Assembly: GCA_036381415.1 (NCBI GenBank)
Contig: DASVCV010000012.1
Location: 10,717 to 74,716, forward strand
Length of the DNA: 64,000 nt
From: Patescibacteria group bacterium
GTDB lineage: Bacteria > Patescibacteriota > Microgenomatia > UBA8517
Direction of reading: 5' to 3'
Positions 12,142 through 30,344 of this stretch are shown here, piece after piece. The position numbers were made by a program, and so were the translations under genes. Under the pieces are notes generated by a model. That model saw only the letters and a program-made list of their open reading frames with translations, did no database searches and was not told the origin of the DNA. Position 1 is the stretch's first letter. Every line of letters begins with the position of its first letter.

Positions 12142-12145
12142 ATTA

Positions 12146-13801
12146 CTAGTTTGCAACTATTTTAAAAACAGGCTTTCCATCAGGTCCATATATTACTCTT
12201 ACTATATTAGCTTCATTTGGAATCTCAGTATCCGTCCCCACAATTAAAGTATTTGGATTATCCACCTTTGCCTCATCAAATCTTATGGTTGAGAAATAAT
12301 ATTTATCAAAGTGGTTAACAGTTGAAAATCCAAATCCATCCCTAGGTGTAAGTGTATGCTCAGCCTGGAACTTAGCAGGCGAATACTTCATGTAGAAAAG
12401 AAAAAGTATATATGGCTGGTCATATCTATCAGTAACCAATATTTTCTGGTATGCACTCGTATGCCCTTGCACATAACTTACTAAGTCTTTTAATCCATAC
12501 TGAGATGAGAATGGATACTCCTTTGCCATATGCACATAATACATGTGTAAGTATCTTCCAAAATTAAGACAAATAGCTGCAACAACAACTATGTAGAATG
12601 CATTCCTTAAATTTGTTCTACTCACTCTTTTTCTAAACTGTGCAACAATGCACATCAGTCCAAACTCACTTAATATCACAAGAGGAATTATCATATTATG
12701 AGCACGTAATGCTCCAGGTGCCTGAAAAGTAAGTGCAGAAGCAACAGGAGCAACAATTAGCCACCACATAATTGTGGCATGCTCCTTCTTCAAATTCCTC
12801 ACAATTACAATTAACCCAATTCCTACAAGCACAACATCATATATATACATCTCTCCTGTTTCTGGAACTTTATTTCTTTGCACTTCATCTCCTGACAAAA
12901 ACAAAAACTCTCCCCAATAATGCTTTCCCCAATTTTCCAAGAATGCCAGCGAATAGTTAACTGCTTTATTATGAAGAGATTTTGCAAGTAAACTGCTTAT
13001 GTTTGAGTGTTCTCCTCTTTGTTCCTCTAGCCTTGATTTAGGTCCCGGATCTGCAAAAAGACCAACTCCAGCTGCTCTGGATAATGCTCCTCCCTTTGTC
13101 AGATCAAGTGCCAGAGGAAGTACAAGAACTAATCCAACTACTGCAGCAATAATAATTGTTCTCTTGCTCTTTAAAATATCTTTAAAATAAATTGCAAAAA
13201 GTCCAATTCCCAGTAGTGGAACAACAACTCTTGCAGCATGGTATGTATATAAAGCCAAAACAAAAGAAACTAGACACCCATAATAATACTTAGGTTTCTT
13301 TAAACCCTTTAGGAAAAGAAGAACTCCTAGGGATATAAAAAAGGTTGCTACATTTGCTTCCCATCCCCCTCTTGAAAAATGTATATGCCAGGGTGATATT
13401 GCAAGAAAAAAGCTTGCAACAAGTGATCCTTCTTCATCATCAAATAATTCCTTGACAAGCATATACACAAGTAGCACCGTGACTACCCCTAAAAACGCAG
13501 CTGGAGCCCGCACCGACATCTCGTTTAATCCAAAAAGCTTTACAAAAGGAACAACAATGTAGAAATAAAGACCAGGTTTATAATCATTAAATGACTGAAA
13601 GTGAATCGGCCAAGGGTTGCCATGTTCATCTTTTCCAGTTTGAATTAAAGAATAAGCATTGTAGCCAATTGCTGCTTCATCTGCATTAAGAGCAGGATAT
13701 GAATCAAGTTGATAAAACCTTAGAGTAAAAGCTAGAAGAACAATAAGTATAAGTGTTATTCTTCTTTTGTTTGATATTAATCCTAATAATCTTTCTTTCA
13801 T
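12146..13801 (-). CDS. PMT/GT39-like GT-C membrane glycosyltransferase (paralog A1); polyprenol-phosphate-sugar dependent by family
   Basis: Loop-1 motif NADEAAIGYNAYSLIQTGKDEHG..FQSFNDYKPGLYFY resembles the PMT DE(V)HFGKFASYY pattern; about 11 TM helices plus a C-terminal soluble domain. Confidence 0.7.
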   Translation of the reverse strand: MKERLLGLISNKRRITLILIVLLAFTLRFYQLDSYPALNADEAAIGYNAYSLIQTGKDEHGNPWPIHFQSFNDYKPGLYFYIVVPFVKLFGLNEMSVRAPAAFLGVVTVLLVYMLVKELFDDEEGSLVASFFLAISPWHIHFSRGGWEANVATFFISLGVLLFLKGLKKPKYYYGCLVSFVLALYTYHAARVVVPLLGIGLFAIYFKDILKSKRTIIIAAVVGLVLVLPLALDLTKGGALSRAAGVGLFADPGPKSRLEEQRGEHSNISSLLAKSLHNKAVNYSLAFLENWGKHYWGEFLFLSGDEVQRNKVPETGEMYIYDVVLVGIGLIVIVRNLKKEHATIMWWLIVAPVASALTFQAPGALRAHNMIIPLVILSEFGLMCIVAQFRKRVSRTNLRNAFYIVVVAAICLNFGRYLHMYYVHMAKEYPFSSQYGLKDLVSYVQGHTSAYQKILVTDRYDQPYILFLFYMKYSPAKFQAEHTLTPRDGFGFSTVNHFDKYYFSTIRFDEAKVDNPNTLIVGTDTEIPNEANIVRVIYGPDGKPVFKIVAN

Positions 13802-15489
13802 TTTAATATTTCTACAACTCTAAAAGCTGTCTTTCCATCTAAATATTTTATTTCCTTAATCAGTTTAAACCTGTTTGGATCACTTGAATCCTGTACGGGC
13901 ATTTTAATTGGATCTGCAACAATTAATTCACCTTTGTGCCCCTGGTCAGCTGACCAATCAATTGCACTAAATTCAATATTGTCTAATTTTTCAACCAATC
14001 CCACATCCCCCATTGGGCTTTCAGTTAAATGAGCCTGTGCTTGGTATTTAGCTGGGTCATACTTTTCAAAAAATAAAAAGTAAATATATGGCTGAGCATA
14101 GCTCTGTTCTACCTTTATTTTCTTGTAGTTTCCTTGTACTGGATAAACTGCTTCAACTATTTGTTTGTAGCCATATTCCCAATAAATAGAATCATGTTTA
14201 GGTAAATGTACAAAATAAGAGTCTAAATAGTAAACATAATTAGCAGTATATATAAGAGCAAGGGCAACAAAGATAATTCTATACCTGCTAATAAGTAAAT
14301 AAGCTCCATGAGCCATAATAATTACAAAAGGAATTACCATATTGAACGCCCTAACAGCATGCACCTGATCCCTAGATAATATCGAAGGAAGTGTAGCTAA
14401 AATAAGCCAAAGTCCTACAAATAAATTTTCCTTCTTTATCAACGAAGTCGGCAAAGCTTTGCTTAGCTTTCCCTTTACCATTGCCGCAAACCCAACTGCC
14501 ACTAAGAAGGCATCGCTAACCAAGAACATCCCCATATTAGGAGGTGAATGTCTTGGGTTAGTCCAATCCCCTTCAAAAAACAAAAATCTAACGGAAAAAT
14601 GATTAAAGAATCTGCCTAGCACTCCTCTTGCAAAATTAAGCCACTCGGGATGAAATAAGTAATAGGATAAGCTTCCTTTCACTTCTTGTCCTTCATCCAA
14701 AAAATCTTGTAAATATTTTTCAGGTCTGGGATTCGAAAAAACACTAAAGATAGCAAGCCTGCCAGTCTGCCCATTAAATAAACTTAGTATTATTGGTATA
14801 CAAACCAATACCCCAACAGCAATCGACTGCAAAATAACTTTTCTTTCTATTTTTAATAACTCCTTAAGGTACAAAACCAAAAGAAGTAAAACTACAATTC
14901 CTGTTGAAAGTTTTGCCCCTTGATATGCAGTAAGGGTTAAAGCAAAAAATACTGCTGAAAATATCAAGTATTTTCCCTTCTTGAAAGATTTGAAAAAAAA
15001 GTAAATACCAATAAGTGTAAGGGTCAAAGAAAGATTTATCTCCCAAGCACCTCTTGAAAAATGTATATGCCAGGAATTAATTGCTAAAAGAAAAGCTCCT
15101 AGAAGTGCAAGCTTTTCCTCTTTCCAAACTTCTTTAAGTACTAAATAAAGAAGTACTACTGCAAGTATCCCTGCTATTGCACTTGGGAGCCTTACTGCAA
15201 ACTCATTGAGCCCAAATATTAAAACTGAAGGAATTGCAGCATAAACATAAAGACCTGGTTTAAAATCTCCAAAAGACTTAAAAATAATTGGGAAAAGTGT
15301 TCCATACTCATCTCTTCCTGTTTTTAAAATTGAATAGGCATTGTATCCCAATGATGCTTCATCAGCAGTCAGATGAGGTGGAACATTACTTAGATTAACC
15401 AACCTCAAAACTGCAGCAAGAATAATTATCAAAAACAAGAACACAGTTATTTTTGATTTAATTTTCATAATATTTTTAATAAATAACAT
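13798..15489 (-). CDS. PMT/GT39-like GT-C membrane glycosyltransferase (paralog A2)
   Basis: TADEASLGYNAYSILKTGRDEYG..FKSFGDFKPGLYVY; 563 aa. Confidence 0.7.
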   Translation of the reverse strand: MLFIKNIMKIKSKITVFLFLIIILAAVLRLVNLSNVPPHLTADEASLGYNAYSILKTGRDEYGTLFPIIFKSFGDFKPGLYVYAAIPSVLIFGLNEFAVRLPSAIAGILAVVLLYLVLKEVWKEEKLALLGAFLLAINSWHIHFSRGAWEINLSLTLTLIGIYFFFKSFKKGKYLIFSAVFFALTLTAYQGAKLSTGIVVLLLLVLYLKELLKIERKVILQSIAVGVLVCIPIILSLFNGQTGRLAIFSVFSNPRPEKYLQDFLDEGQEVKGSLSYYLFHPEWLNFARGVLGRFFNHFSVRFLFFEGDWTNPRHSPPNMGMFLVSDAFLVAVGFAAMVKGKLSKALPTSLIKKENLFVGLWLILATLPSILSRDQVHAVRAFNMVIPFVIIMAHGAYLLISRYRIIFVALALIYTANYVYYLDSYFVHLPKHDSIYWEYGYKQIVEAVYPVQGNYKKIKVEQSYAQPYIYFLFFEKYDPAKYQAQAHLTESPMGDVGLVEKLDNIEFSAIDWSADQGHKGELIVADPIKMPVQDSSDPNRFKLIKEIKYLDGKTAFRVVEILK

Positions 15490-15497: not shown

Positions 15498-17192
15498 CTA
15501 GTTGCTATATATTTCAAAAGCTTTCTTTCCATCTAAAAAGTCATATGTTTTCAACAGCTTCCATCCTTTGGGATAATTACCAGGACTTGTAATAAGTAAG
15601 CACTTAGTTTTTGAGCAATCCACATTCTCCTTTTTACTCTCCAGTACAAATGTAGTCCCTTCTTTAGGAATTTGCCAGTCATTCACAAAGTAAAATTTAT
15701 CAAACCTATCCACCCAATACCAGTTGCTTTGGAAAAATCGGATTAGATTTGGATCATTTCTATATTTTTCCGGACTCCACCCTGAAAAGAAAAGAAGAAA
15801 TTCATGTGGTTCTCCATACTTCTTAGTCACTATAATCTTTTCATATTGAGAAGAGTTCTCATTTGCATAGCTATACACCTCTTTGTATCCGTATTGCCAA
15901 GCCCAAGAATAGTTATTTCTATAGCTGTTAGCATACACATTCAAATAATTTCCAAGCAATATAAACATAACTCCGCCAAACAGCAAGCTCACAAAAACTC
16001 TATACTTAGGCATTCTCTTTATAACCTCAACCAAACCAACTGCACTAAGTATTTGCGGAATAGGTAGCAATGTAGTTGCCCTAATAAGAGCAGATTCATC
16101 TTGTGTAATGGCTGCAGGAATAGGCGCCAGAATTAGCCATAATAATAGTAATCTCCAGTCTCTGTCTTTTATAGCCTTCTTGATCAAAATAAATAGTCCT
16201 AAATAAAAAAACGGCAATTCAGCCAGATATAAAACTCCATGATTTGGAACACTAAATTGATACTGAGTTCCACCTTTTAAAAACAAAAAGCTCGGAGAAA
16301 AATAATTTATATAGTTTCTTGCAAAATTAACTGAAAGATATGTGGCTTTGTTATATAAAAGCGACTTAAACGGCAGCTTTGAGCTATTACGCAAATCGTT
16401 TATTTGATTAATAGCTCCCTGATCAATCAAAAAAACTACATTAGACCTTGCCCTAGCTTGAGGATTTAAAAGAATAAAAGGCAGAGGTGCAAAAAACAAG
16501 AGTATGAAAGCAAATGAAACAACAATCTCTACACTTCTTCTAGAAATCTTCTGGATAAACTCCTTTCTATAAATCAAAAGTAAACCAACCAATATTAATG
16601 GCGAAAAAATTCTAGTTGAATGATATGAAAAAAGAGTCGAACCCAGAAATAAAAATGAAATAGGTGTAAACCATCTGTTCTTTTCTCTATTAAAAAAGAC
16701 AGCCATTGCAGTTGTCAGAAAAAATACAGACAAGTTGGACTGAAAAACTGCCCTTGATGGAAACAAAAGCCACGGATCAATTGCAGCAAAAAAAGAACCA
16801 ATAAGTGCAATTTTGCGGTTTTTTGTTATCCCAAGAGCAAGAAAATATACAGAAACAATTGTCAAAGTGCCTAAAAACGCATGTGGAAAGCGTATTGCAA
16901 CCTCATTAAGCCCAAAAACAGCTATAAAAGGAATTGTTAAGTAAAGATTAAGAGGAAGGGGATAGTCTCCATAAGCTCTAAAATTTGCAATTGGGAAAGC
17001 CTGACCCCACTCATCCTTGCCTGTCTTAAGGATAGAATAGGCATTATATCCATGGCTTACCTCATCCCAATTAAGGGAAGGTGGAACAAAATTTAAGTAA
17101 GAAAATCTTAAAACCGCTCCAAGCACCAATATTAGAACTAAATATTTATTTTTAAGTAAAAAGCCAATAATGTTATTTTTTATTTTCTTCAT
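15498..17192 (-). CDS. PMT/GT39-like GT-C membrane glycosyltransferase (paralog A3)
   Basis: NWDEVSHGYNAYSILKTGKDEWG. The track start at 17228 is TTG; the ATG at 17192 gives MKKIKNN. Confidence 0.7.
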   Translation of the reverse strand: MKKIKNNIIGFLLKNKYLVLILVLGAVLRFSYLNFVPPSLNWDEVSHGYNAYSILKTGKDEWGQAFPIANFRAYGDYPLPLNLYLTIPFIAVFGLNEVAIRFPHAFLGTLTIVSVYFLALGITKNRKIALIGSFFAAIDPWLLFPSRAVFQSNLSVFFLTTAMAVFFNREKNRWFTPISFLFLGSTLFSYHSTRIFSPLILVGLLLIYRKEFIQKISRRSVEIVVSFAFILLFFAPLPFILLNPQARARSNVVFLIDQGAINQINDLRNSSKLPFKSLLYNKATYLSVNFARNYINYFSPSFLFLKGGTQYQFSVPNHGVLYLAELPFFYLGLFILIKKAIKDRDWRLLLLWLILAPIPAAITQDESALIRATTLLPIPQILSAVGLVEVIKRMPKYRVFVSLLFGGVMFILLGNYLNVYANSYRNNYSWAWQYGYKEVYSYANENSSQYEKIIVTKKYGEPHEFLLFFSGWSPEKYRNDPNLIRFFQSNWYWVDRFDKFYFVNDWQIPKEGTTFVLESKKENVDCSKTKCLLITSPGNYPKGWKLLKTYDFLDGKKAFEIYSN

Positions 17193-18669
17193 ATTTAAAT
17201 TTCTTCCAGGTAGCTGCAACCAGCACAACTGCCAAAACGCTCACCCAATTTCCAACAGTTCTGACAGGTGTATCTGAAAAAACCGCCCCGTCTGCAGGAA
17301 TCAAACCATTTTTATCAGGTTGGTAATTCCAACCTGGAAAATAGTTTATATACTTTCCATCAGAAATCTTATCCGGTAGTTTATGGCCAAAGTTTGGCCA
17401 ATAATCATTAATTGATGCAAACCTTGATTCTGTCCAAAAAGCCCCGCTCTCCAAATCACTATCTGTAACACTCTTCCATATATCTGGTCTGAAAAAATTG
17501 TAGTTAAGAGCTATTGCAATTACCACAACGACAACAGCCATCCATACTCCAAATTTCCCTAAGTATTTTACAATCAGCCCTGAGGCAAGTGCGAAAGAAA
17601 AAACAGCAACACTCAAAAATCTCCATGGGAACTGAATATATTTCATAAACATTAAGTTGTTCCAAATAAATGTTGATTTATTATGAGTCAAGAAAAGTGC
17701 AAAAACTCCTATTAAAACTAAGGCCACAAAAATCTTTACATCCTTAGTAAATTTTCTCCTTAAGAGGACAATTAAACCAACAAGAAAAGGTAGAACCCAC
17801 TGTATCTGTCCAACTGATAAGCTAAGCCCATCATCAGTTCCCCATACAGATCCTCCATAACCCCAAAATCTGGAAACAAAAAGCTGCCCAATCGTTACAA
17901 AATTGGCTCTCCAATCAAAATATCCGCTTGTTGTAGAACCGATATCTACAAATTTTGATTCAAAAATAACCGGCAAAATATAAAACGCAGAAATTACAAA
18001 AGAAAAAAGTCCCGCAATTGCAAGGTATACAAATGGTTTTACATTTTTATATGTTAATAGCCTAAAGATTGTCCATCCTATTAAAAAGGGTAAAAATAAA
18101 ACAACTGACAAACTATGATTTAAGAGTAGAAGAGCAAAGAATAGACTAAACAGGACTAGATACGTCTTCTTCTTTGTAGACAAATAGTTTTCTATTTCTA
18201 AAATTATCAATGGAAAGAAAACAAAACTCATGCTCTCAGCCAGATCTCCCCTTACCCAGACATCAACTGCCCGGTATGGAGCATACAGATAAATAGCAGA
18301 TGACACTATCGCCGCCCAATCACTTTTCCAAATCTTTTTGGCCAGTAAAAACATTGCAAAAGCTGACATTACAAAGGATAAGGTAAAAGCAATTTTTAAA
18401 GAGTCTATTTTGCTAAAACCAACTAAATGAAATATTTCTCCAACTGCAAATGACACCTGTCCGTAAAAATTAAAAAGAGGCTCTCCATAACCAGCCCCCA
18501 CATCCTGCGCCCATCTGCATGGAATCTGTAAAGCTCTAAAGCACTTGTCTAGCTCAACCAAACGGATGTAGGGAAAATCCTGCATTGAGTAAATGCCAAA
18601 CTGGAGCATTCTCCAAAAAGCAGGGACAGATATAGCTAAAACAAGTAGAATTAAAAGTTTCTTTTTCAC
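17173..18669 (-). CDS. Polytopic membrane protein, putative GT-C (resembles the 'PTPS-related'/COG5617-type family)
   Basis: N-terminal motif LQIPCRWAQDVGAGYGEPLFNFY is shared with the N-terminal module of 46697-49711; about 12 TM helices; GTG start overlapping the upstream stop. Confidence 0.5.
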   Translation of the reverse strand: MKKKLLILLVLAISVPAFWRMLQFGIYSMQDFPYIRLVELDKCFRALQIPCRWAQDVGAGYGEPLFNFYGQVSFAVGEIFHLVGFSKIDSLKIAFTLSFVMSAFAMFLLAKKIWKSDWAAIVSSAIYLYAPYRAVDVWVRGDLAESMSFVFFPLIILEIENYLSTKKKTYLVLFSLFFALLLLNHSLSVVLFLPFLIGWTIFRLLTYKNVKPFVYLAIAGLFSFVISAFYILPVIFESKFVDIGSTTSGYFDWRANFVTIGQLFVSRFWGYGGSVWGTDDGLSLSVGQIQWVLPFLVGLIVLLRRKFTKDVKIFVALVLIGVFALFLTHNKSTFIWNNLMFMKYIQFPWRFLSVAVFSFALASGLIVKYLGKFGVWMAVVVVVIAIALNYNFFRPDIWKSVTDSDLESGAFWTESRFASINDYWPNFGHKLPDKISDGKYINYFPGWNYQPDKNGLIPADGAVFSDTPVRTVGNWVSVLAVVLVAATWKKFKYEENKK

Positions 18670-20291
18670 TTTGTTGATACAATATAATACGCCGGCGTCA
18701 GATTAGGATAATTCACTACAAAATCAATTTTTGCACTTGTAGGAAATTCAGATGGCTTCCCAACTAAGATAATATTTTTCAGCTTGCTGTCCACATTATA
18801 ATTAATATCTCGAAAAATATACTTTCCTATATTGTAGCTTCCCTGCTGGTCCACCCAACCATTAACTAATTCCCAATTCCTGCTTGCGCTCTGATACTCT
18901 CTAGGGTCTATTTTTTTATAAAAAGCTAAATAAATTTGAGGCTCTGAAACTGACTTTGAAATAATAACTTCCTTCTTTCCACCTTCTTCTTTAGATATAA
19001 AATCCACCACTTCTTTCGTTCCATATATCATACTAGGAGCATAAGAAACCCTCTGAGCATACACATACTTCTCAAAATTAAAAGCAAACGAAAGAAAAAC
19101 AACAATTACACTAGCAAACACAATTGCCTGCTTATAAAATCTAGGAAACTTAAGAACATATCTTCTATACAAATAGACTAACCCAAATGCCAATAAAATT
19201 TGCAGTGCAGGCATCATAAAAGCTACTCTGTTTGCAGCAAAACCAGGCCCTGTTGTTAAACTTGCAGGTATTGGACTTATTAATACCCAAAAAATAAATA
19301 GCCCTGCATTTTTAATTTGCCCACGGATTAATCCAACAATCAGTCCCACCAAAGATACAATGTCAAACAAGTACAATACCCCCACTCCTGGAACCATCCC
19401 ATAAGTTCCCTCATTTGGACCATTTGTAAAAAGAAACTGAGGAGAAAAGTAACTTAGGTAGTTTTTTGTAAAAGTTGTTGCAAGAGTAATAAGCTTATTA
19501 TTAAATGTTCTTGCCACTATATTTGCCTCTCCAGCCAAAATTGCCTGATACCGGTCCTGAGCAGACCATCCAGAAACCAAAGAAAAAATAGAAGATGAGG
19601 CAATCCTTGAGCTTCCAATTATATAAAAATAAACCGCTGAAGCTAAAAATAAAAACACTACCACACAAGCAAATAGAGTGTATTTTTCAATTTTTATCTC
19701 TTTTCTATAATTAAATATTAAGTATCCAACAATTAATGGAGTAAGCAATCTTGCCGTGTGATATGAAAACATATTAAGTCCAAAAACTAATGCACTCACA
19801 ACCAACAGCTTTGGCCTTTTAATACCTTCTATAAATAGAAGTATCCCCAGTGGTAAAAAAAATGTAGTTAGATTAGCTTCAAATGCCCCTCTTGAAAGCA
19901 TGATATGCCAAGGTGAAATTGCAACTAAGAATGAGGCAAGTAAAGCAGTTTTGTCTGTACTTAGCTTCTTAACTAGAAAATAGACAGCTACTAAAGCTAA
20001 ACTGCCAAGTACTGCATTAGGAAGTCTTGTAGCAGTTTCATTAAGTCCAAAAACTGCAATAAAAGGTATATCTAGATAGCTGTATAAAGGAAGCTTAGAA
20101 TCTCCAAATGATCTTAATATTAACGGAAAACTCACTCCCCACTGATCTTTTCCCGTTTTTAAAATTGAATAGGCATCATAACCAAACGAAGCTTCATCAG
20201 GAGTAAACCCAGCAGGTACACTATTTAATCCTATAACTCTAAGTAAGAATCCTAAAGATACAATTAATACTAAAATCCACTTTCGTGCCAC
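18666..20291 (-). CDS. PMT/GT39-like GT-C membrane glycosyltransferase (paralog A4)
   Basis: TPDEASFGYDAYSILKTGKDQWG..LRSFGDSKLPLYSY; apparent GTG start. Confidence 0.7.
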   Translation of the reverse strand: MARKWILVLIVSLGFLLRVIGLNSVPAGFTPDEASFGYDAYSILKTGKDQWGVSFPLILRSFGDSKLPLYSYLDIPFIAVFGLNETATRLPNAVLGSLALVAVYFLVKKLSTDKTALLASFLVAISPWHIMLSRGAFEANLTTFFLPLGILLFIEGIKRPKLLVVSALVFGLNMFSYHTARLLTPLIVGYLIFNYRKEIKIEKYTLFACVVVFLFLASAVYFYIIGSSRIASSSIFSLVSGWSAQDRYQAILAGEANIVARTFNNKLITLATTFTKNYLSYFSPQFLFTNGPNEGTYGMVPGVGVLYLFDIVSLVGLIVGLIRGQIKNAGLFIFWVLISPIPASLTTGPGFAANRVAFMMPALQILLAFGLVYLYRRYVLKFPRFYKQAIVFASVIVVFLSFAFNFEKYVYAQRVSYAPSMIYGTKEVVDFISKEEGGKKEVIISKSVSEPQIYLAFYKKIDPREYQSASRNWELVNGWVDQQGSYNIGKYIFRDINYNVDSKLKNIILVGKPSEFPTSAKIDFVVNYPNLTPAYYIVSTK

Positions 20292-21592: not shown

Positions 21593-23127
21593 CTAATAAG
21601 TACGGATTAATTCTTATTTTGCTGTTGGCGTTCTGTCTTAGAGTAGCCTGGATAAGTAAGTCCCCTCCATCCCTTAATTGGGATGAAGCATCTTTTGGAT
21701 ATAATGCCTACTCAATTCTTAAAACTGGTAAGGATGAATTTGGAGTTAAACTCCCCATATTTCTTAGGTCCTTTGACGACTACAAACCAGCCCTTTATTC
21801 ATACCTTACAATTCCCTTCATATATCTATTGGGGCTAAATGAAGCTTCAGTCAGACTGGTTTCCGTTTTTTCAGGCACTTTCTCAGTGATATTTATATAT
21901 CTATTAGCAAAAGAGCTCTTTAAAAACAAATACATTGGGCTTCTTTCAGCTCTATCTATAGCAATTGAACCCTGGGCCATCCACTTTTCAAGAGCCGCCT
22001 TTGAAGCAAACCTTGCCCTCACATTAGTTTTAGGTGGTATCTACTTTTTACTAAAATCAAAACTAAAAGATAACTACGTAGTATTAGGAACCCTACTTCT
22101 TTCTTTATCTCTATATGCATACACCGCAAGCCGTATACTCATAATCCCCATTCTTTTAGTTTTTCTTGCCATTTATGGAAAAAATCTATTTAAAATCAGA
22201 AAAACTTTATATTTAATAATTATTTTTAACTTAATTCTAGTTCTTCCAATAATAATAACTAACATTGTCCACCCAGAAACCTTGTTTAGGTTATCCTCAA
22301 CATTTTTAATTTCAAGTTCCACCCCGGCAAGATTTCTTTCCTACTTCTCACCAATAAATTTATTTGTAAGAGGTTCTTCAGAGCCAACCCAACATATTCC
22401 AAACTTCGGAATGTTTTTTAGTTTTGAATTTTTCTTCTGGGTAATAGGAATCTATTTTCTCTTAAAAAAGTACACAAAAGAAAAAATTTTAATCTTTCTA
22501 ATTCTTGTAGCTCCAATTCCAGCTGCAATAACATGGAATTGGTTTTATCCTGCCCGAGTTCTACCTTTGTTTTCGCTTTTTTCAATTCTAATAGGATTAG
22601 GCTCATACCAGACAATAATTTATCTTGCCACAAAACCAAAAATTATTTTTGCTTTTTCAATTCTTGCTATTGCATTCCTTACTCTGTACAACCTTGCCAA
22701 TCTGGTAACCACACTCCGTTATCTACTTCCATACGAGGATAGAGGAAACTGGCAATATGGAATGAGAGAAATAGTCCAAGAAATTGCAAAGAATGAATCT
22801 AACTACAACACAATTGTTTTCGAAACAAGAAACGCCCAGCCCTTTATCTTTGTACTTTTCTATTCCAAGTATCCGCCTGATATGTATCAAAAACAGATAG
22901 AAAACACCGCCAAACTCCAAATCCCAAGGAAAAGCTTTGATTTTGGAAAATACATCTTTAGAGATGTTTACTGGCCAAATGACAAGAAAGACCAAAGAAC
23001 TCTTCTTGTTGCTCCAGATTCATCACTGCCACTAGATAAGGTAAAATCAAACTCAAATCTAAACCTCATTAAAGAAGTTAATGATTTTGAAGGAAACCTT
23101 CTGGCAAGAATAGTAGGACTTAGATAA
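21571..23127 (+). CDS. PMT/GT39-like GT-C membrane glycosyltransferase (paralog A5)
   Basis: NWDEASFGYNAYSILKTGKDEFG..LRSFDDYKPALYSY; 518 aa. Confidence 0.7.
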   Translation: MDRIIQITNKYGLILILLLAFCLRVAWISKSPPSLNWDEASFGYNAYSILKTGKDEFGVKLPIFLRSFDDYKPALYSYLTIPFIYLLGLNEASVRLVSVFSGTFSVIFIYLLAKELFKNKYIGLLSALSIAIEPWAIHFSRAAFEANLALTLVLGGIYFLLKSKLKDNYVVLGTLLLSLSLYAYTASRILIIPILLVFLAIYGKNLFKIRKTLYLIIIFNLILVLPIIITNIVHPETLFRLSSTFLISSSTPARFLSYFSPINLFVRGSSEPTQHIPNFGMFFSFEFFFWVIGIYFLLKKYTKEKILIFLILVAPIPAAITWNWFYPARVLPLFSLFSILIGLGSYQTIIYLATKPKIIFAFSILAIAFLTLYNLANLVTTLRYLLPYEDRGNWQYGMREIVQEIAKNESNYNTIVFETRNAQPFIFVLFYSKYPPDMYQKQIENTAKLQIPRKSFDFGKYIFRDVYWPNDKKDQRTLLVAPDSSLPLDKVKSNSNLNLIKEVNDFEGNLLARIVGLR

Positions 23128-23135: not shown

Positions 23136-24401
23136 TTAATTTATTAAAGAGTTAATTTTCTTTGTAAGATGTATAAGCTTTATAAATACAATAAGGTTAA
23201 TAATCGAAAGCGCTGTCTTTACACTATCTATCTTTAAAAGGCTCTCCAGGAAGGAAAAAGGAGGTGCCCAAAACAAATGATATAGATTTAAAAGACTTAA
23301 AATAGACAAAATAATATAAGAAATTAAAATTTCTGGGAAAAATCCAAGAGAAATAGTAGCCAGCGGAAAAAAGGGATAAAGATACCTCTCATGAATTCTT
23401 GTAAAAAACAAAAACGTAGCCAAAGCAGTCAAACTTAAAGCATAGAAAATATACTTTTCTTCAAATTTATGTTTCTTTAGCCATAATATTAGTGTAAGTA
23501 CTATCCCGATAACCAAAAGATACCCCCAAATATGTGCTGACAAGCCAAAATAAATGTAAGAATCAAGAACTTTTCCAGGATCAACTATCCACCAGAAATT
23601 AAAGGCATTGGCAGTTAAATACCCAATCTCCCCTGGAAATATTCTTTGATTATATAAATTAAATAGCCAAACAGGTAAATCAAAAGCTGGGTGGAACCAA
23701 ATTGATATTCCAACTACGCATATTGCACATGCTGCAAATGCCCTCACCCACTCCTTTACTTCATATTTCTGCCAAATCATTACCACAAAAAGAATTGGCA
23801 GAAAGATAGACAAAGACCCTTTAAACAGTAAGCTCAAAACTATAAATATCATGGATAAAACTAGTTTCCTCTTCATTAGAAAAAGAATACTCACTAGTCC
23901 TAATAAATTTACAATTGGATCTGTTTGCCCCCAAACAGCAGAGTTATATAAAATAACAGGATTAAATAGCCACAAAGCACTCAAAATAAACCCCCTTCTT
24001 TCCATCTTCTTTTCTTTAAAGTACTTATAAATAAGCCATCCAATCCCAAGATCAGCTAAAACTGACGGAAGCTTAACCAACAAGGTCATTCCTTGTCTTT
24101 CCCAATACCAAATAAACTTTGATGGAAAAAATGAAATGCGATTATTTAGGAACCAGGAACTATTATCAACAAAACTCCAAATATTATTAGTAAAAGCAAA
24201 TAGAAGTATAGTTAAAGGCGGCTGGTTTGGTGCTGAATTAGGCCAATCAGTCCCTTCATAAAAATTAGCTAGTCCTCTCTCACTAGCTAACTTTCCCCAA
24301 GAAATATTGTTATTTAAATCCCCGTGGAATGCAATTGGGATTAAAAGGAGTCTTAATATAAAAGCAGCTAGTATTAATATAATAAATTTTTTGCTCTTCA
24401 T
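23136..24401 (-). CDS. Polytopic membrane protein, putative GT-C mannosyltransferase-like (DUF2029/GT87-like)
   Basis: KLPSVLADLGIGWLIYK and NPVILYNSAVWGQTD motifs are shared with the C-terminal module of 46697-49711. Confidence 0.45.
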   Translation of the reverse strand: MKSKKFIILILAAFILRLLLIPIAFHGDLNNNISWGKLASERGLANFYEGTDWPNSAPNQPPLTILLFAFTNNIWSFVDNSSWFLNNRISFFPSKFIWYWERQGMTLLVKLPSVLADLGIGWLIYKYFKEKKMERRGFILSALWLFNPVILYNSAVWGQTDPIVNLLGLVSILFLMKRKLVLSMIFIVLSLLFKGSLSIFLPILFVVMIWQKYEVKEWVRAFAACAICVVGISIWFHPAFDLPVWLFNLYNQRIFPGEIGYLTANAFNFWWIVDPGKVLDSYIYFGLSAHIWGYLLVIGIVLTLILWLKKHKFEEKYIFYALSLTALATFLFFTRIHERYLYPFFPLATISLGFFPEILISYIILSILSLLNLYHLFWAPPFSFLESLLKIDSVKTALSIINLIVFIKLIHLTKKINSLIN

Positions 24402-26134
24402 TTATTACAATATACACTTTTGTTGGGTGTGCTTGCACACTTTAATCCCGGATTAGTTTTGTAACCAATAAATATTGGCCGATGAATAGGATCATCAATT
24501 TCAAAAACCTTGGTTAAAAAATGCTCCTTAGCCTGTTTAGAAGATATAGATAGCTCATCCCCTACCAAAATTTGATTTTTGTATATATCTTTTTCCCAAA
24601 TTATCCCTCGAGTTTCAACATTTTCAAATTGATGGTATGGATCAAACTTAGTATTACTATAATAATTATATTTTATCGTTTGATCTATGTTTTTTTGATA
24701 AATTAAAGGATCAATCTTCATAAAAAATGCCAATTCAATATATGGTATTTTTATTCTTTGATCTTCAACAATGTAGTGCGTCTCAGAATCCTTTCTAATT
24801 AATTGGGACAACTCCTCAAAGCCAAAGCTAAAATCTCTAGCTTTCTCATTAATAAACAAAACAAAATAAGATCTCCAGAAAAATGACAAGGAAATAAACA
24901 AAAATAAAATAACAAATAAACTCTTTACTAATAATTTAGGTTTAAATTTGTTTAGAAACACCATAACTTCATTTATTCCAAACGCAATAATAAGGCTTAT
25001 TGGAAAAACAACAGGCATTGCTCTGTGGGTTGACAATGGATCCTTAGTTAATGCCGCAGGGATAGGTGAAAGAAGTAAAACTAATAATATAAATTTTGAA
25101 TAATCCTCTTTTCTCTTTTTCCAAAGATAAACTACCCCAATCAAATAAGGAACAACCATCCAAACATAAAAAGGTGTCATTTCTGGCATATCCAAATCAT
25201 TTGATAAAAACAAACTTCTTGGAGAAAAATAGTTTACATATTGAGAAAGAAACTCTCGTAAAAAAGATAATACAAAAGCAACTAATTTGGGAAAAATATT
25301 AATTTTTTCTGCCTGTGACAAAATTGCAGAAGAAGACATTAAATCAGACTTAGGAAAAAAAGCAGGTGTAAAAACTATCATTAAGTTAGGTATCTGAGTC
25401 AAAAACAATATTGCAAAAGAAATAATAATATTTTTATAATTTTCTTTTTTAAGTATCTTTTTCCTAAAAATAACAAAAAAGAAAAGAATTAAAGGAGGAA
25501 TAATAAATCTTTCGGTATAGGCAGCATAAAGAGAAAATGAAAGAAAAACTGCAGAAGGAATTAAGTAGATGCTCTTTTTAAGAGAAAGCCAAAGAAATAA
25601 AGAACCTGCACAAAAAAGAAAGAACGCTAGCGACACTTCATATCCAACCCTGCTTTGGAATACAAGCCAAGGAGTTACTGCAAAAAACAAACTTCCAACT
25701 AGTGAAATTTTAAGGTTCTTAAGGAAAAAATAAAATACAAAAATTGACAAAAACCCGCTTAATGATGCAACAATTCTTACTGCATATGGATTTAACCCCC
25801 ATATTTTTATAGGAAGTGTAGTTAAGTAAATATATAAAGGCGCATTATAAGAGCCATACATCCTAAAAACTATCGGCAAGAACTTTCCATATTCATCCTT
25901 GCCAGTTTGGAGAATACTGTAAGCATTATACCCATGAAGTGCTTCATCCACATAAAACCCTTTCGGAACAGATTCTAGCTTAACAAAAAAGATTATAAAT
26001 CCAATAACACCTAGAAGTGTTAATATCAAAACTGATACCCAATTTCTTTTAATTTTAAAGTGTTGCATAAATAATAGTTTGAACAAAGACCAATAAATAG
26101 CAAACAATAAATAACCCAACCACGATCCTTTCAT
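24398..26134 (-). CDS. PMT/GT39-like GT-C membrane glycosyltransferase (paralog A6)
   Basis: YVDEALHGYNAYSILQTGKDEYG..FRMYGSYNAPLYIY; 578 aa. Confidence 0.7.
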   Translation of the reverse strand: MKGSWLGYLLFAIYWSLFKLLFMQHFKIKRNWVSVLILTLLGVIGFIIFFVKLESVPKGFYVDEALHGYNAYSILQTGKDEYGKFLPIVFRMYGSYNAPLYIYLTTLPIKIWGLNPYAVRIVASLSGFLSIFVFYFFLKNLKISLVGSLFFAVTPWLVFQSRVGYEVSLAFFLFCAGSLFLWLSLKKSIYLIPSAVFLSFSLYAAYTERFIIPPLILFFFVIFRKKILKKENYKNIIISFAILFLTQIPNLMIVFTPAFFPKSDLMSSSAILSQAEKINIFPKLVAFVLSFLREFLSQYVNYFSPRSLFLSNDLDMPEMTPFYVWMVVPYLIGVVYLWKKRKEDYSKFILLVLLLSPIPAALTKDPLSTHRAMPVVFPISLIIAFGINEVMVFLNKFKPKLLVKSLFVILFLFISLSFFWRSYFVLFINEKARDFSFGFEELSQLIRKDSETHYIVEDQRIKIPYIELAFFMKIDPLIYQKNIDQTIKYNYYSNTKFDPYHQFENVETRGIIWEKDIYKNQILVGDELSISSKQAKEHFLTKVFEIDDPIHRPIFIGYKTNPGLKCASTPNKSVYCNK

Positions 26135-26819
26135 TAAGCACTTTTGAAACTTTTATCTTTTCATAGACATACTTTACTCCTGATAAAATTGATAAGAATA
26201 TAAATGGGAACAAAACAAATGGACCAATAGGGTTTGATTGTCCAATTAATCCAATCAAAAAAATTGGAATAGCAAAAGACAAGAAAAATATCTTTTTTTC
26301 TTTCTTGTAATCAAAATTTAAAAATCCTATTACAAAAAATGGAAGTAGAATATAAGGAAACTTCTCAAACTCCTTAAATCCTACTCTTTCATTAGGATGG
26401 TTTGAGAAAAAATATAAATTTAAACTCAATGCATCACTAACATTGTTTTTAATTCTATATATGGACAACAACCAGGGTTTGTTTTCAAACCAATTAGCAG
26501 TAGGTATCCATAAATTTTTATTAAATATTTTTATATACACAGGTGGATATTCTTTTAATCTTTGTATCTGGTACAGTTTTTCTTGATCACCCAACTGGAC
26601 TAAAGGAATAGTCTTAGTAGTTGCAAACTGAAATGCAATAAGAATAAGCATGCTAATAATAAAAATCTTATTTATTTTTTTCTCTTTTACGCTTTTATAT
26701 ATAAAAAATGTTGCAGCTAAGACAGCAGTAAATATAAAGAAATTAAAATGTAGTATTTTCCAAATCCAAATATTTGCAAAAAGAAAAATAAAAAATAATT
26801 TTAAATTAAGATTAGTCAT
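26055..26819 (-). CDS. Internal fragment related to the PMT-like family (loop plus FSP/FLF region plus about 4 TM); lacks the DE loop and the C-terminal domain
   Basis: LNLYFFSNHPNERVG..FPYILLPFFVIGFLNF parallels YFSPSFLFLKGG..LYLAELPFFYLGLFIL; overlaps the 24398-26134 start by 80 nt. Confidence 0.35.
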   Translation of the reverse strand: MTNLNLKLFFIFLFANIWIWKILHFNFFIFTAVLAATFFIYKSVKEKKINKIFIISMLILIAFQFATTKTIPLVQLGDQEKLYQIQRLKEYPPVYIKIFNKNLWIPTANWFENKPWLLSIYRIKNNVSDALSLNLYFFSNHPNERVGFKEFEKFPYILLPFFVIGFLNFDYKKEKKIFFLSFAIPIFLIGLIGQSNPIGPFVLFPFIFLSILSGVKYVYEKIKVSKVLNERIVVGLFIVCYLLVFVQTIIYATL

Positions 26820-26835: not shown

Positions 26836-28614
26836 TTACCAGAGAGAAGGGAAGTTATCTGGTATTATCCCATCAGGATATTTTGTATTTCTTTCTACTT
26901 CAACCATATATTTAAACCTACTAGGAGGAACAGGAAGTGGAGTCGGCATCTTAGATAGAGGATAAAATTCAATCATTGAATAGGCAGCTACTCCATCAGG
27001 ATAGTAGAAAGTCTTGACGACCTTTGAATTTTGAGGAATCTCCTCCCCCTTACACACATACAAAACATTTAATTTGCCACTCTTAGGGCAGTTAAATGTC
27101 ATCTTAAAATAAATATTATCCAACCTATCTACCCTCTCCCATTTACTTTCAGATACTGGCTTTATGACAGCTCTTTTAAGAAACTCCTGAGGAGTTATTG
27201 CTCCATAGAAAAGGAAAAATATGTAATCATCATTGTTTACAGCAACGGCTTTATAATTATCTTTAATTGCTAATATTTCCTTAGTCATGCTCTCATTTAC
27301 AGCTTCTTTAAACCAAGGTCTGTCAGTTGGCTTTTGCACAAAAATTTGGTTCAAAGCATAAAAAGAACTTAGAAGTCCAAACACAAAAATTCCAGCTAAA
27401 ACAACTTTCTTAACATTTCCTTTAAATAAATTACCAATGCTTAAAAAGCCATATGCTGAAATAAGGCAAATTGGAACAATCATAATAGAAGCTCTGTGAA
27501 TATATGGCCCTCCATCAGTTAGAGATGCAGCTACAGGAGCAGCTAGAAGCCAAGCAAATACAATAATGCCACTTTTAAAGTCACTTTTAAATAGAAAAAG
27601 TAACCCGGCAGGCAAAAGTACAACTTCCACCAAAAGTAAAACTCCCATGTCAGGAATTCTTTCTTTAGAATCCATTGCTCCAGTAAAAAATAAAAATTGA
27701 GGGCTAAAATATCTAGCATAGCGATCTAAAAGTCCAACAGCTCCAATCTCATATTTATTATGTAAAAACCAGGTTAATCTTGGAGCAATTTTTACAGGAG
27801 AAACACCCGCCTGAAAGTAAATCTCTTCCAAATGGCTTGCCTCATCTGATGTCATACCACTCCAAATATCTGCTCCAGCTCTTCCTCTATTTTCGGCAGG
27901 GATGAAAGAAAGAAAAATTATTAAACCCAAAGCTGCTGCAAACCCAGCTAAAACTTTTCTTTGTACTTTTAAATTAGAATTTTTAATAAAAGATATTCCA
28001 ACTAATCCTAAAAGGAATAAGGGTATAAAAACTCTTTGAGCTCCATATGTAAAAGATGAAATTAAAAATAAAACAAAGGCTGTAGCAATAAGTATTCTTC
28101 GCTTTTTTATTTCTTTTGCATTCTTAAATTTAAACGCAGCAAAAAGAGCAACAACTGCTCCTGTGGTTAAAACCATAGCAATATGGTTTTCATACCCCAA
28201 CCTAGATTCAAGAATGCTCCATGGTGACAAAGCAGCAAGCCAGGAGGCAACAAGCCCCATTTTAGGATTTGAAAATATCAAAACAGCTAGTGCATATAAT
28301 AGTAATATGAGAATAACTCCAGATGCTGCATCCCAAAACCGAATCTCCACATTTTTCATTCCAAAAATAGCAGCAGGGATTGCATTTAAGTAGGCAAGTC
28401 CAGGATATTTAAAATCTCCAATAGATGCAAAATTAAGTGGAAGTACCTTGCCATACTCATCAGTTCCAAAATGAAGTAAGCTCCAACCGTAGTATCCAAA
28501 AGCAACTTCATCTCCATCTGGCGGAAACGGTAGAGTGGTAATTCTCCAGAAGCGGGTACCGACACCAACTAATACTGCAAGTATTAGTAAGATCTTAACC
28601 CAATTCATTTTCAT
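26836..28614 (-). CDS. PMT/GT39-like GT-C membrane glycosyltransferase (paralog A7, most divergent)
   Basis: DGDEVAFGYYGWSLLHFGTDEYG. The track start at 28620 is GTG; ATG codons lie at 28614 and 28608. Confidence 0.65.
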   Translation of the reverse strand: MKMNWVKILLILAVLVGVGTRFWRITTLPFPPDGDEVAFGYYGWSLLHFGTDEYGKVLPLNFASIGDFKYPGLAYLNAIPAAIFGMKNVEIRFWDAASGVILILLLYALAVLIFSNPKMGLVASWLAALSPWSILESRLGYENHIAMVLTTGAVVALFAAFKFKNAKEIKKRRILIATAFVLFLISSFTYGAQRVFIPLFLLGLVGISFIKNSNLKVQRKVLAGFAAALGLIIFLSFIPAENRGRAGADIWSGMTSDEASHLEEIYFQAGVSPVKIAPRLTWFLHNKYEIGAVGLLDRYARYFSPQFLFFTGAMDSKERIPDMGVLLLVEVVLLPAGLLFLFKSDFKSGIIVFAWLLAAPVAASLTDGGPYIHRASIMIVPICLISAYGFLSIGNLFKGNVKKVVLAGIFVFGLLSSFYALNQIFVQKPTDRPWFKEAVNESMTKEILAIKDNYKAVAVNNDDYIFFLFYGAITPQEFLKRAVIKPVSESKWERVDRLDNIYFKMTFNCPKSGKLNVLYVCKGEEIPQNSKVVKTFYYPDGVAAYSMIEFYPLSKMPTPLPVPPSRFKYMVEVERNTKYPDGIIPDNFPSLW

Positions 28615-28616
28615 CT

Positions 28617-30344
28617 TCACCTTCCGCTAAAAATATAAAATGCAGGAGCTCCTGAGGGATAGGCAATTGCTTTTATCAGCTTTAAATCCCCTGGTGTCCT
28701 TTCTGGCTCATGAATTAAGTCAACCTTAACCTCATTGGCAGTAGCTACATATAAAGTATTTTTATCTAGTAGCTTTCCAAATCCATACACTCCCTCACCA
28801 GCAACACTTGCTGTCCCAAAATAATATTTATCAATATAGGAAACATTTCCAAACCCCTTCACTTCAGTCTTCTTAAATGGATATCCTTCGTGCCATTTGG
28901 CAGGTGGATATGGGTAAAACCCTGCAAAAAATATCCAAGGAGGTTCAGAATATGTTGAAATTATAACTTTACTATAATTTCCTTCTACTTCTTTCATGGC
29001 ACTAATTGCTTCCTTAAATCCATAATGCCACATCCGCTCATTGTCCCAAGGGTTATGTACAAAGTATCCATGAAGGAAAAATATAATAGACACAACCCAA
29101 ACTGCTCCGTATACTAAAACTAAATATTTTCTATAATTCTTTTTTACTAATTTAATCCCTTCAACAATTCCATACGAAATTAAAATTACTAATGGAGGCA
29201 GTATTAGAATTAAGCGTGTTGAGTGTGTTCCACCATCACGGGTTAACGCCGAAGGAAGTACACCTGCTAATATCCAAAAACCAATCAAGGCTTTTAATCT
29301 TTTGTTTTTAGTCTTTACAAAAAACAAAAACAGTCCAGCAACAAGCGGAATTGCTTCTAATTTATAAAACTGACCAATCTCTTGTATTGAGTGCCTTGAG
29401 TTAGGATCTCCAGTATTAAATAAATAATCAGCACCTAATGCCTGGAAATAGTTTCTGGTAATAACTGTTCCAATGATAGTAAATTTATTGTGTAACAACC
29501 TGTCTATTATCGTTGGGTTCACTCCTATTTGAGTTTCTCCCCTCATTAAAGCATCTCTTTGTCTAGCAAAACCTACCTCAGACTCAATTGTAGGATCAGT
29601 AAAAATACCTATATAATCAAATCTTGCCGTTCCTCCTCCAAACATTGTGCTAAATGCAATTGGAACACCAACAATAAGTCCTGCTATGGCTGTATAAACA
29701 AGTTGCCTTCTAGGAAGTGAAAATATCTCTTTTCTCCAAACTAATGTTAAAAATACAATTAAAAACGGTGTAAATAATTTGGCAGTGCTGTAAATCCACG
29801 GGGTAAGACAAAAACAAACTGCAGCAAGCCACATCCATTTTCCATTCTTTAGACCCTTAAAAAAGAAATACAAGCCTAACATTAAAAAAAACAAAAGCTC
29901 AGTAACTTCAAACCCAGCCCTGCTGTACTGAAAATGCCATGGGGAAAAAGTAAGTACCAGTGCTGAAAGAAGTGCCAGCTTTTCACTTTTAAACAACTCC
30001 TTTACTAAAAGGTAAAATGCCCAAATCCCTAAAACTCCAAAAATAACTGCAGGAAGCCTTACCCCATAAGGACTAATTCCAAATAAAGCTACCGTAGGTA
30101 CTGCACTATATAAATAAAGAGGAGTTCTCCACTCAGCTAGTGAATTAAAATGAAGAGGGAGTATATTCCCAGAGTAATCTTTTCCAGTTTTTAAAAATGA
30201 ATAAGCCTGATACCCCAAGTCCACTTCATCTCCAAACAAAGAAACAGGCACTTTTGTTATATTCCAAAACCTTAGAATAAAGGCTAAAGCAAGAATTGCA
30301 ATTAAAATGTGAATAGGTTTTATCTTTTTGACTATTTTTTCCAT
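28617..30344 (-). CDS. PMT/GT39-like GT-C membrane glycosyltransferase (paralog A8)
   Basis: FGDEVDLGYQAYSFLKTGKDYSG..FNSLAEWRTPLYLY; 575 aa. Confidence 0.7.
   Translation of the reverse strand: MEKIVKKIKPIHILIAILALAFILRFWNITKVPVSLFGDEVDLGYQAYSFLKTGKDYSGNILPLHFNSLAEWRTPLYLYSAVPTVALFGISPYGVRLPAVIFGVLGIWAFYLLVKELFKSEKLALLSALVLTFSPWHFQYSRAGFEVTELLFFLMLGLYFFFKGLKNGKWMWLAAVCFCLTPWIYSTAKLFTPFLIVFLTLVWRKEIFSLPRRQLVYTAIAGLIVGVPIAFSTMFGGGTARFDYIGIFTDPTIESEVGFARQRDALMRGETQIGVNPTIIDRLLHNKFTIIGTVITRNYFQALGADYLFNTGDPNSRHSIQEIGQFYKLEAIPLVAGLFLFFVKTKNKRLKALIGFWILAGVLPSALTRDGGTHSTRLILILPPLVILISYGIVEGIKLVKKNYRKYLVLVYGAVWVVSIIFFLHGYFVHNPWDNERMWHYGFKEAISAMKEVEGNYSKVIISTYSEPPWIFFAGFYPYPPAKWHEGYPFKKTEVKGFGNVSYIDKYYFGTASVAGEGVYGFGKLLDKNTLYVATANEVKVDLIHEPERTPGDLKLIKAIAYPSGAPAFYIFSGR

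Follow-up and report, generated by a model that had tools for sequence, protein, structure and literature searches.

Gene arrays encoding PMT_2/PMT-clan GT-C glycosyltransferases in the Microgenomates, with a possible role in envelope glycan assembly

The ALG3/9/12/6/8/10 enzymes of the endoplasmic reticulum lumen and the mycobacterial EmbCAB, Aft and Mpt enzymes are glycosyltransferases of the GT-C fold that each add one defined polyprenyl-phosphate (polyprenyl-P) sugar to a growing glycan after flipping, with cytoplasmic GT4-type enzymes and a MOP/Wzx-type flippase acting upstream; embCAB is also a tandem array of paralogs. ArnT (family GT83), the undecaprenyl-phosphate-L-Ara4N:lipid A transferase, is encoded by a single gene, and bacterial pmt genes, encoding protein O-mannosyltransferases (PMTs, family GT39, which includes fungal Pmt1-7, actinobacterial Pmt and Cbes_1864 of Caldicellulosiruptor bescii), typically stand alone. 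Gram-positive multi-component systems of the GtrA/GtrB/GtrC type, for example GacI/GacK/GacL, CsbB/GtcA/YfhO, CsdCD/CsdEF and GtsABC, combine a GT2 synthase of a polyprenyl-P-sugar with a flippase of the GtrA or Wzx type and an outward-facing PMT_2- or YfhO-type GT-C enzyme; their PMT_2-domain members GtlB, GttB, CsdD, CsdF, GtsC and GacL use C55-P-sugars to modify teichoic acids or wall polysaccharides (PMC8035078). Here we describe eight related genes that lie between positions 12146 and 30344 of a 64,000-nucleotide stretch of DNA from a Patescibacteria group bacterium of the Microgenomatia (assembly GCA_036381415.1, contig DASVCV010000012.1, positions 10,717 to 74,716). We refer to this whole stretch as the window, and to each gene by its first coordinate within it. 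The eight paralogs are GT-C enzymes of the PMT_2/PMT clan, not specifically of GT39, and form a Microgenomates-centred family within that clan. All the gene kinds of the Gtr-type systems are present here, and loop 1 likewise carries a modified DxD/DE motif. Those systems, however, have one GT-C enzyme per GT2 enzyme, whereas here five to nine GT-C paralogs stand in a fixed series with distant ones nearby; nor were lipopolysaccharide genes, or genes for a teichoic-acid or rhamnan backbone, recognised in the window.

The eight open reading frames (ORFs), of 518-594 aa, are all present in the ORF list of the window, in agreement with a preliminary description of this DNA that had reported eight full-length paralogs with a common architecture. 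Every pair aligns over its full length in an all-against-all BLASTP comparison (E 5e-23 to 9e-91), and the similarity among the eight is not due to chance. Identity between paralogs is 25-35% by BLASTP and 24-36% (mean 29%) over a MAFFT alignment of the eight proteins (A1, numbered after the 12146 protein), lower than the 35-55% that had been judged by eye; the first outer loop alone is 38-69% identical. There are 28 invariant columns in A1, including D41, E42, G46, Y47, S51, G56, D58, G61 and P65, and the common loop previously written as 'DE..GYNAYS..TGKDE.G' is thereby recovered as an invariant D-E..G-Y...S....G.D..G, of which the divergent 26836 protein retains the D-E, G-Y, S, G, D and G. 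In the eight paralogs, and also in an alignment of 51 sequences, the DE dyad never varies, and neither this nor the clan placement given below contradicts the preliminary description. Across five of the orthogroups described below, D41/E42 and nine further loop-1 positions are universal, and universally conserved positions make up 19% of loop 1 versus 2-7% of other regions. A strict search for orthogroup-specific conserved positions returned only five, too few for specificity mapping. The C-terminal soluble domain, which had been expected to be variable, is not a set of different domains but is homologous in all eight proteins and diverges like the membrane core (mean identity 24%, compared with 23-30%).

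In the AlphaFold model (pLDDT 88), the first transmembrane helix (TM1) spans residues 2-29, and D41-E42 begin the first loop helix (residues 40-55). Basic residues (MKERLLGLISNKRR) precede TM1, which places the N-terminus in the cytoplasm. The predicted layout is a cytoplasmic N-terminus, one helix, an outward loop bearing the Asp-Glu dyad, approximately eleven further helices and a small alpha/beta outer domain at the C-terminus, and the dyad itself would serve as the general GT-C catalytic or acceptor-activating motif. In the literature the DE motif counts as a hallmark of enzymes with the GT-C fold and is common to ArnT, with D77/E78 of Pmt1 equated with D55 of ArnT (PMC8698208). This supports the view that the loop would mark an active GT-C enzyme and not, as had been supposed, a protein O-mannosyltransferase in particular.

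Profile searches place the family in the clan. PMT_2 (PF13231, gathering cut-off 26.1 bits) is matched at or above its cut-off by six of the eight paralogs, 26836 falling below it and 24398 giving no match, and PMT (PF02366, cut-off 22.7 bits) likewise by six, with 18666 and 24398 failing. The two sets of matches overlap, as befits members of one clan, those to PMT cover loop 1, and seven paralogs pass at least one of the models, in keeping with the PMT/PMT_2 membership proposed earlier; 26836 and 24398 are full-length members by the family profile despite their poor Pfam scores. Neither an MIR domain, which eukaryotic PMTs carry in their large lumenal loop, nor the C-terminal membrane domain PMT_4TMC (PF16192) was matched at E <= 0.01 in any of the eight. 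No NCBIfam model was matched above cut-off by the paralogs or the interleaved membrane proteins, and those for ArnT were not matched at any score, the best values below threshold being 57 bits for archaeal Agl23 (TIGR03663, cut-off 126) and 21 bits for LA_3751/LA_3752 (cut-off 200). When compared with solved structures, the A1 profile reached ArnT (5ezm, E 0.0015) and an STT3 subunit (E 0.011) and no Pmt at E <= 1; a profile of the 51 sequences gave STT3 at E 0.0034, the PMT 9i5k at E 2.2 and ArnT at E 5.5, and a single-sequence search of the PDB with the 12146 protein returned nothing at E <= 10. The AlphaFold model has a polytopic GT-C fold and matches GT-C enzymes only, with tabulated figures of 23.9 for ALG12, 22.3 for both ArnT and AglB, 21.9 for Pmt4, 21.7 for STT3B, 18.6 for Pmt2, 17.8 for ALG9 and 16.0 for Pmt1, and with identities of 12-15% to the five best and 8-16% overall. 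It is therefore as near to ALG12, ArnT and AglB as to Pmt4, and nearer to these than to Pmt1 and Pmt2; the proposed comparison with the Pmt and ArnT structures thus does not single out Pmt. The soluble domain is C-terminal and alpha/beta, with no beta-trefoil match. ArnT, the oligosaccharyltransferases, ALG12 and the PMTs all lie at about the same distance from the family. Homologs carry the automatic names 'glycosyltransferase family 39 protein' (NCBI) and 'ArnT-like glycosyltransferase' (JGI), and both labels call for caution as neither family is specifically fitted.

These comparisons bear on the suggestion that the paralogs are protein O-glycosyl (mannosyl) transferases, each with its own set of targets among secreted or envelope proteins (S-layer proteins or pilins, for example), in the manner of fungal Pmt1-7 or actinobacterial Pmt. 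The PF02366 matches including loop 1, the invariant dyad and the existence of a paralog family as in fungi would suit such a role, and the family DE falls on the DE of the solved PMT 9i5k, although that alignment is non-significant. The dyad is nevertheless a general GT-C trait, the MIR and PMT_4TMC domains are missing, and no Pmt fits the fold better than ALG12, ArnT and AglB do. Taken with the genomic context considered below, we regard protein O-glycosylation as a rather unlikely function for the array, although one that deserves some weight.

A second alternative is that the proteins are ArnT-like modifiers that transfer polyprenyl-P sugars to the head group of a membrane lipid or to a lipid-anchored glycolipid. 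They resemble ArnT in length, in part in a DE...Y.A...KP pattern in loop 1 and in having a C-terminal outer soluble domain, but are only 12% identical to it and are encoded by eight paralogs as opposed to a single gene. The loop-1 motifs of ArnT are RYA and YFEKP (PMC5377068). Their possible counterparts in the family are Y47-x-A49 and K75-P76; Y47 and A49 are conserved, the Arg of RYA is absent, and K75, which falls on the Lys of YFEKP in the profile alignment, is replaced by P, N or R in three of the eight paralogs. The name given by JGI and an ArnC-like GT2 gene in the window (56155..56850, - strand; ArnC E 7e-15 in a PDB search), itself a candidate for making a sugar donor, also favour an ArnT-like role. 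Eight separately conserved paralogs in a cluster with Wzx, GT4 and GT2 genes exceed the usual need for head-group modification, however, and lipid A synthesis is not known from Microgenomates. Together with the lack of any NCBIfam ArnT match, this makes an ArnT-like activity on lipids improbable.

The family is large. The 12146 protein has 3163 relatives at E <= 1e-10 among 8000 candidates scored, the best 120 of which are 58-86% identical and come from organisms named at NCBI as Patescibacteria, Microgenomates, Curtissbacteria and Woesebacteria, and of 1.84 billion cluster representatives searched with the A1 profile, 6724 score at E <= 1e-30. For analysis of gene context we used two metagenome contigs, one in two copies (L001-L003), and 29 loci from GTDB genomes (L004-L032), which hold four to six family members in the 10 kb upstream of the 12146 ortholog. 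Orthology was assigned within these 10-kb flanks from best-hit ratios and a neighbour-joining tree without bootstrap. One-to-one orthologs were found for six of the window paralogs: 12146 in 25 loci (42-68% identity to the window protein), 13798 in 21 (44-65%), 15498 in 22 (42-64%), 18666 in 20 (40-56%), 28617 in 10 (32-61%) and 24398 in 4 (39-47%). The median identities of these groups are 44-57% (range 32-68%) versus 25-35% between paralogs, and in the tree of 121 sequences each of the six orthogroups forms a clean clade with no intruders, with deep, star-like branching between paralogs. Since orthologs are closer than paralogs and the clades are clean, the duplications are older than the divergence of these Microgenomates lineages. 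The more distant UBA10118 and a Gottesmanbacteria metagenome-assembled genome have arrays of their own with no one-to-one orthologs.

Gene order is conserved as well as gene content. When the ORFs of each locus were mapped onto the window proteins, the same order was observed in at least 20 genomes. In the common arrangement, GT2 genes of the 32634 and 30332 types (in some loci) are followed by genes of the 28617, 23136 and 18666 types, then in some loci by a 17173-type (YfhO-like) or 46697-like gene, then by the 15498, 13798 and 12146 types, and finally by GT2 (11266 type), GT4 (10166 type), Wzx (8916 type), GT2 (8117 type) and GT4 (7008 type) genes. The run of 18666, 15498, 13798 and 12146 types followed by GT2 and GT4 is present in at least 20 genomes, most of which continue with Wzx, GT2 and GT4, and the order downstream of the 12146 ortholog is the same in most of the 29 loci. 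The 28617- and 23136-type genes lie upstream of that run in about half of the genomes; the 30332-type GT2 precedes the 28617-type gene in L006, L014 and L018, and the 32634-type GT2 is found in L014 and L018. In the window, the position between the 28617 and 18666 types is occupied by additional genes, namely 26836, 26055, 24398 and the inverted pair 20285/21571, and elsewhere this slot holds a 24398-type or an unassigned member, so that it looks like a variable zone.

The earlier description of an old, maintained family is consequently borne out, and more strongly than had been proposed, with six separate orthogroups and a gene order kept in at least 20 genomes. We also considered whether the array might be a recent, redundant or decaying duplication without distinct functions. 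In favour of such an origin, the catalytic loop has been lost from one additional, truncated family member (20285-21592), and 26836, 26055, 24398 and the pair 20285/21571 are missing at this position in most related genomes. All eight paralogs are, however, intact, of full length and with the 28 invariant positions kept, the truncated copy itself has homologs of 41-49% identity elsewhere, and paralogs that are 25-35% identical stand against orthologs at about 40-68%. A recent duplication or pseudogene origin is rejected on the low identity between paralogs, the closer orthologs and the clean clades, and we consider it very improbable.

The paralogs are very probably GT-C enzymes that use polyprenyl-P-sugar donors outside the membrane, the type of donor and the outward activity being inferred, as is one role for each paralog. 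We favour, with moderate confidence, the interpretation that they serially assemble or decorate one conserved envelope glycoconjugate and carry out non-redundant steps in doing so. This is indicated by the separate orthologs of six paralogs, by the order of four of them, which is fixed throughout the class, and by the constant company of the block, namely GT2 and GT4 genes, a Wzx flippase and a GT2 resembling polyprenyl-P-sugar synthases. In the proposed pathway, GT2 enzymes of the island of the dolichol-phosphate mannose synthase (DPMS)/GtrB/ArnC type would charge polyprenyl phosphate with sugars at the cytoplasmic face, a GtrA-like domain or Wzx-type flippases would flip the lipid-linked sugars, and each paralog would then move one sugar to its own acceptor position at the outer face of the membrane. 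The fixed order, the one-to-one orthologs and the clustering with GT2, GT4 and Wzx genes are easier to reconcile with a pathway than with several enzymes each specific for certain proteins, and this conserved neighbourhood, which also includes the synthase-like GT2 and a YfhO-like GT-C, is of the glycan assembly or decoration type and lends no support to the PMT/GT39 assignment, or to the protein acceptor, of the preliminary description.

The window contains genes that would supply donors. One of them (58464..59654, - strand) encodes a full-length DPMS homolog whose four-helix membrane domain is GtrA-like (Pfam GtrA_DPMS_TM 53.8 bits); the protein matches the Pyrococcus furiosus dolichol-phosphate mannose synthase 5mlz over residues 6-345 (E 1e-48 in a PDB search) and is a likely source of a polyprenyl-P-hexose donor. 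Two plus-strand ORFs within the 56155-59654 span (56885-58054 and 58094-58522) lie outside the system. Nearer to the array, at about 2-5 kb from it, are the 8117-8950 GT2, whose closest solved relatives are DPMS (5mlz, E 5.7e-13) and GtrB (E 3.2e-11), and the 8916-10169 Wzx, both of which are syntenic in most related loci. A synthase-like GT2, a flippase and GT-C enzymes are thus encoded together both in the window and in the conserved block, and by BLASTP five GT2 proteins or domains of the window belong to the DPMS/GtrB/ArnC-like group.

Several observations weigh against serial assembly of an envelope glycan. No known acceptor was recognised in the window, and a Pfam scan of it recovered no initiating phosphoglycosyltransferase, no Wzy/WaaL-type polymerase or ligase and no LCP ligase, so that the supposed pathway is incomplete here. 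PF02366 matches are no worse than the PMT_2 matches for some members, the C-terminal domain lacks a carbohydrate-binding fold in the fold comparison, and the orthogroups depend on the unbootstrapped tree and best-hit ratios mentioned above. In C. bescii, protein glycosylation depends on a GT39 protein of 556 aa (PMC6151902), which makes a protein acceptor plausible for proteins of similar length and kind. The 26836 orthologs of two genomes are found alone, as bacterial pmt genes typically are, so that this member at least is not dependent on the cluster. The C. bescii enzyme, the C-terminal domain and the solitary 26836-type genes can equally be counted in favour of protein O-glycosylation, as can the full-length DPMS homolog, a relative of polyprenyl-P-mannose synthases, that the island encodes.

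By functional analogy with the ALG and Emb/Aft/Mpt pathways, which likewise employ several diverged GT-C paralogs, a more far-reaching interpretation can be put forward. It is possible, although we advance it only tentatively, that the arrays represent a Microgenomates-wide, ordered extracytoplasmic line of five to nine GT-C enzymes, joined in the window by a catalytically dead, DE-less protein as a possible partner subunit, and that this line is the counterpart of ALG3/9/12/6/8/10 and builds a complex, conserved envelope glycoconjugate. In sequence the proteins are not related to those of these pathways beyond the common fold (8-12% identity to ALG12 and ALG9), and an oligosaccharyltransferase, as found in ALG-type pathways, was not recognised in the window. 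If the arrays do form such an assembly line, its product could dominate the surface of these ultrasmall cells, which probably live attached to hosts, and might have a part in attachment or in resistance to phages. Bacteria of the candidate phyla radiation have very small genomes, yet about 60 kb is devoted to glycosylation here, and the core of the array is conserved throughout the Microgenomates, each gene with its counterpart. This suggests that a lineage with poorly characterised envelope chemistry, and with a lifestyle that probably depends on cell-surface contact, makes an elaborate and conserved glycoconjugate at its surface. The locus is of interest for the large share of a reduced genome that is given over to surface glycosylation, for a gene-for-gene conservation suggestive of an assembly line and for the DE-less paralog. 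The proteins are already generically annotated in public databases, and both the enzymes and the system are of a known kind; we found no published description of an ordered multi-paralog array in Microgenomates, which, given incomplete coverage of the literature, is weak evidence of novelty. For functional work the conserved block offers a defined gene set and the DE dyad a target for mutation.

The DE-less protein is encoded by 20285-21592 (+ strand, 435 aa), an N-truncated ninth member that matches positions 121-544 of the family profile (E 1.3e-18), without TM1 and the DE loop, and has no Pfam match. Only eight database clusters resemble it, seven at 41-49% identity and one, 'hypothetical protein VF185_04405 [Patescibacteria group bacterium]' at NCBI, at 100%. 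The ORF overlaps the start of 21571-23127 by 22 nt, and its product may be a non-catalytic paralog acting as a partner subunit. The divergent 26836, formerly singled out as the most divergent member, is among the two most divergent by BLASTP but shares that place with 24398. Its orthogroup comprises approximately 80 clusters at 42-56% identity with the loop 'LPFPPNGDExAFGYYGWSLLHFGTDEYG', two conserved cysteines and a tail ending 'PDGIIP...SLW'; E38 is invariant in it, and the Asp is displaced by one position in two orthologs. A distinct specificity of this member is plausible on these features. In two of the three genomes examined (L034 and L036) its ortholog stands alone and distant from any glycan cluster, between Dus/GIY-YIG and Glu-dehydrogenase/NUDIX/GH18 genes, and in L035 it lies beside a different GT-C array.

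The eight genes do cluster together, although their description as a tandem array has to be qualified, as 21571-23127 is on the + strand, the other seven being on the - strand, and four membrane-protein genes (17173-18669, 20285-21592, 23136-24401 and 26055-26819) intervene. Most of the genes are tightly packed, with overlaps of a few bases or gaps of 8-16 nt. The first paralog (12146..13801, - strand, 551 aa) is a PMT_2/PMT-type GT-C glycosyltransferase with the best-conserved orthogroup and Pfam scores of 57.6 bits for PMT_2 and 45.5 bits for PMT. It is followed by 13798..15489 (- strand, 563 aa; PMT 42.9, PMT_2 38.7 bits), the orthologs of which adjoin that of 12146 in every case, and by 15498..17228 (- strand, 576 aa from a TTG start; PMT 34.1, PMT_2 27.5 bits), where the true start is probably later than that of the longest ORF, an in-frame ATG being present 12 codons downstream. 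The interleaved gene 17173..18669 (- strand, 498 aa) encodes a polytopic membrane protein resembling YfhO and PTPS_related, with weak Pfam matches that are both below cut-off; its product is probably another GT-C enzyme, and a gene of this type is found in the same place in L001, L016, L019, L024, L027 and L029. The fourth paralog, 18666..20291 (- strand, 541 aa; PMT_2 57.0 bits), is divergent from the truncated 20285-21592 (+ strand), and the starts of the two overlap by 7 nt or, if the NCBI start is used, are about 20 nt apart. There is no intergenic space for two promoters, and the + strand pair must be transcribed from inside the neighbouring coding sequence. A search for inverted repeats around this pair revealed no inversion scars and only the paralogous coding similarity of 18666 and 21571.

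The fifth paralog, 21571..23127 (+ strand, 518 aa; PMT_2 40.8, PMT 24.3 bits), has an intact DE loop and no one-to-one ortholog in the fetched 10-kb flanks. The adjacent 23136..24401 (- strand, 421 aa) encodes a polytopic membrane protein with no Pfam match, for which a PDB sequence search returned noise only; it belongs to the syntenic block, its orthologs lying between the 28617- and 18666-type genes in at least 12 loci. The sixth paralog, 24398..26134 (- strand), has 578 aa as the longest ORF, but a Logan assembly of the same DNA calls it from a later start with 556 aa, and the real start probably gives a protein shorter than the longest ORF. It lacks a Pfam match, yet it is a full-length member by the family profile (623 bits) with its DE loop intact. 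A further membrane protein within the array (26055..26819, - strand, 254 aa) has one homolog, in L017, and nothing significant in Pfam (EpsG at E 0.045 only). The seventh paralog, 26836..28620 (- strand, 594 aa), carries the loop 'PPDGDEVAFGYYGWSLLHFGTDEYG' and a C-terminal extension; it narrowly passes for PMT (23.3 bits) and is below cut-off for PMT_2 (19.1 bits). The eighth, 28617..30344 (- strand, 575 aa; PMT_2 44.6, PMT 28.8 bits), has orthologs that sit at the upstream end of the conserved block. Upstream of the array (30332..33542, - strand), Pfam identifies GT2 genes at 30332-31120 and 32634-33542 on either side of a weakly PMT_2-like membrane protein (31156-32637). The downstream flank (7008..12156, - strand) comprises a GT2 (11266-12156), a GT4 (10166-11287), the Wzx-type flippase (8916-10169), the polyprenyl-phosphate-sugar synthase-like GT2 (8117-8950) and a second GT4 (7008-8120). 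A scan of 11.5-31.4 kb for promoters and terminators gave counts not above those in shuffled sequences, a result that is compatible with co-transcription of tightly packed genes and otherwise uninformative.

The array forms part of a larger glycosylation island, as nearly all genes from approximately 1 to 60 kb of the window are concerned with glycosylation. There are about 20 genes for GT-C-type or GT-C-like membrane proteins, including more distant PMT_2 proteins (38683, 45204, 49739, 52073, 54620 and, weakly, 31156) and YfhO-type proteins (34224 and the N-terminal half of 46697), alongside numerous genes of the GT2 and GT4 families and genes for two Wzx-type flippases, for methyltransferases and for sugar-nucleotide epimerases/dehydratases. 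A second glycosylation region at 34224-56173 contains distant PMT_2 proteins, the YfhO protein 34224, the second Wzx-type flippase (43698) and a 585-aa membrane protein with no family match (41984-43741). Two fusions were observed. In the 1004-aa product of 46697-49711 (- strand) the N-terminal half is 35% identical to 17173 and the C-terminal half 30% identical to 23136 by BLASTP, which suggests that the 17173 and 23136 proteins, separate members of the conserved array, work together. In the 828-aa product of 2400-4886 (- strand) an N-terminal NAD-dependent sugar epimerase/dehydratase is joined to a C-terminal DPMS/AglJ-like GT2, possibly providing a channelled route from nucleotide sugar to lipid-linked sugar.

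The 64-kb window contains no tRNA genes and no Rfam families. About 34% of its bases are G or C, the GC skew of all 2-kb bins is negative, and nearly all genes are on the - strand. Several of the array-bearing GTDB records (L007, L008, L012, L015, L017, L018, L019, L024, L027 and L028) are titled 'uncultured Gammaproteobacteria bacterium', among them a record of 810,692 bp described as a chromosome (L019); these look like mislabelled genomes of the candidate phyla radiation.

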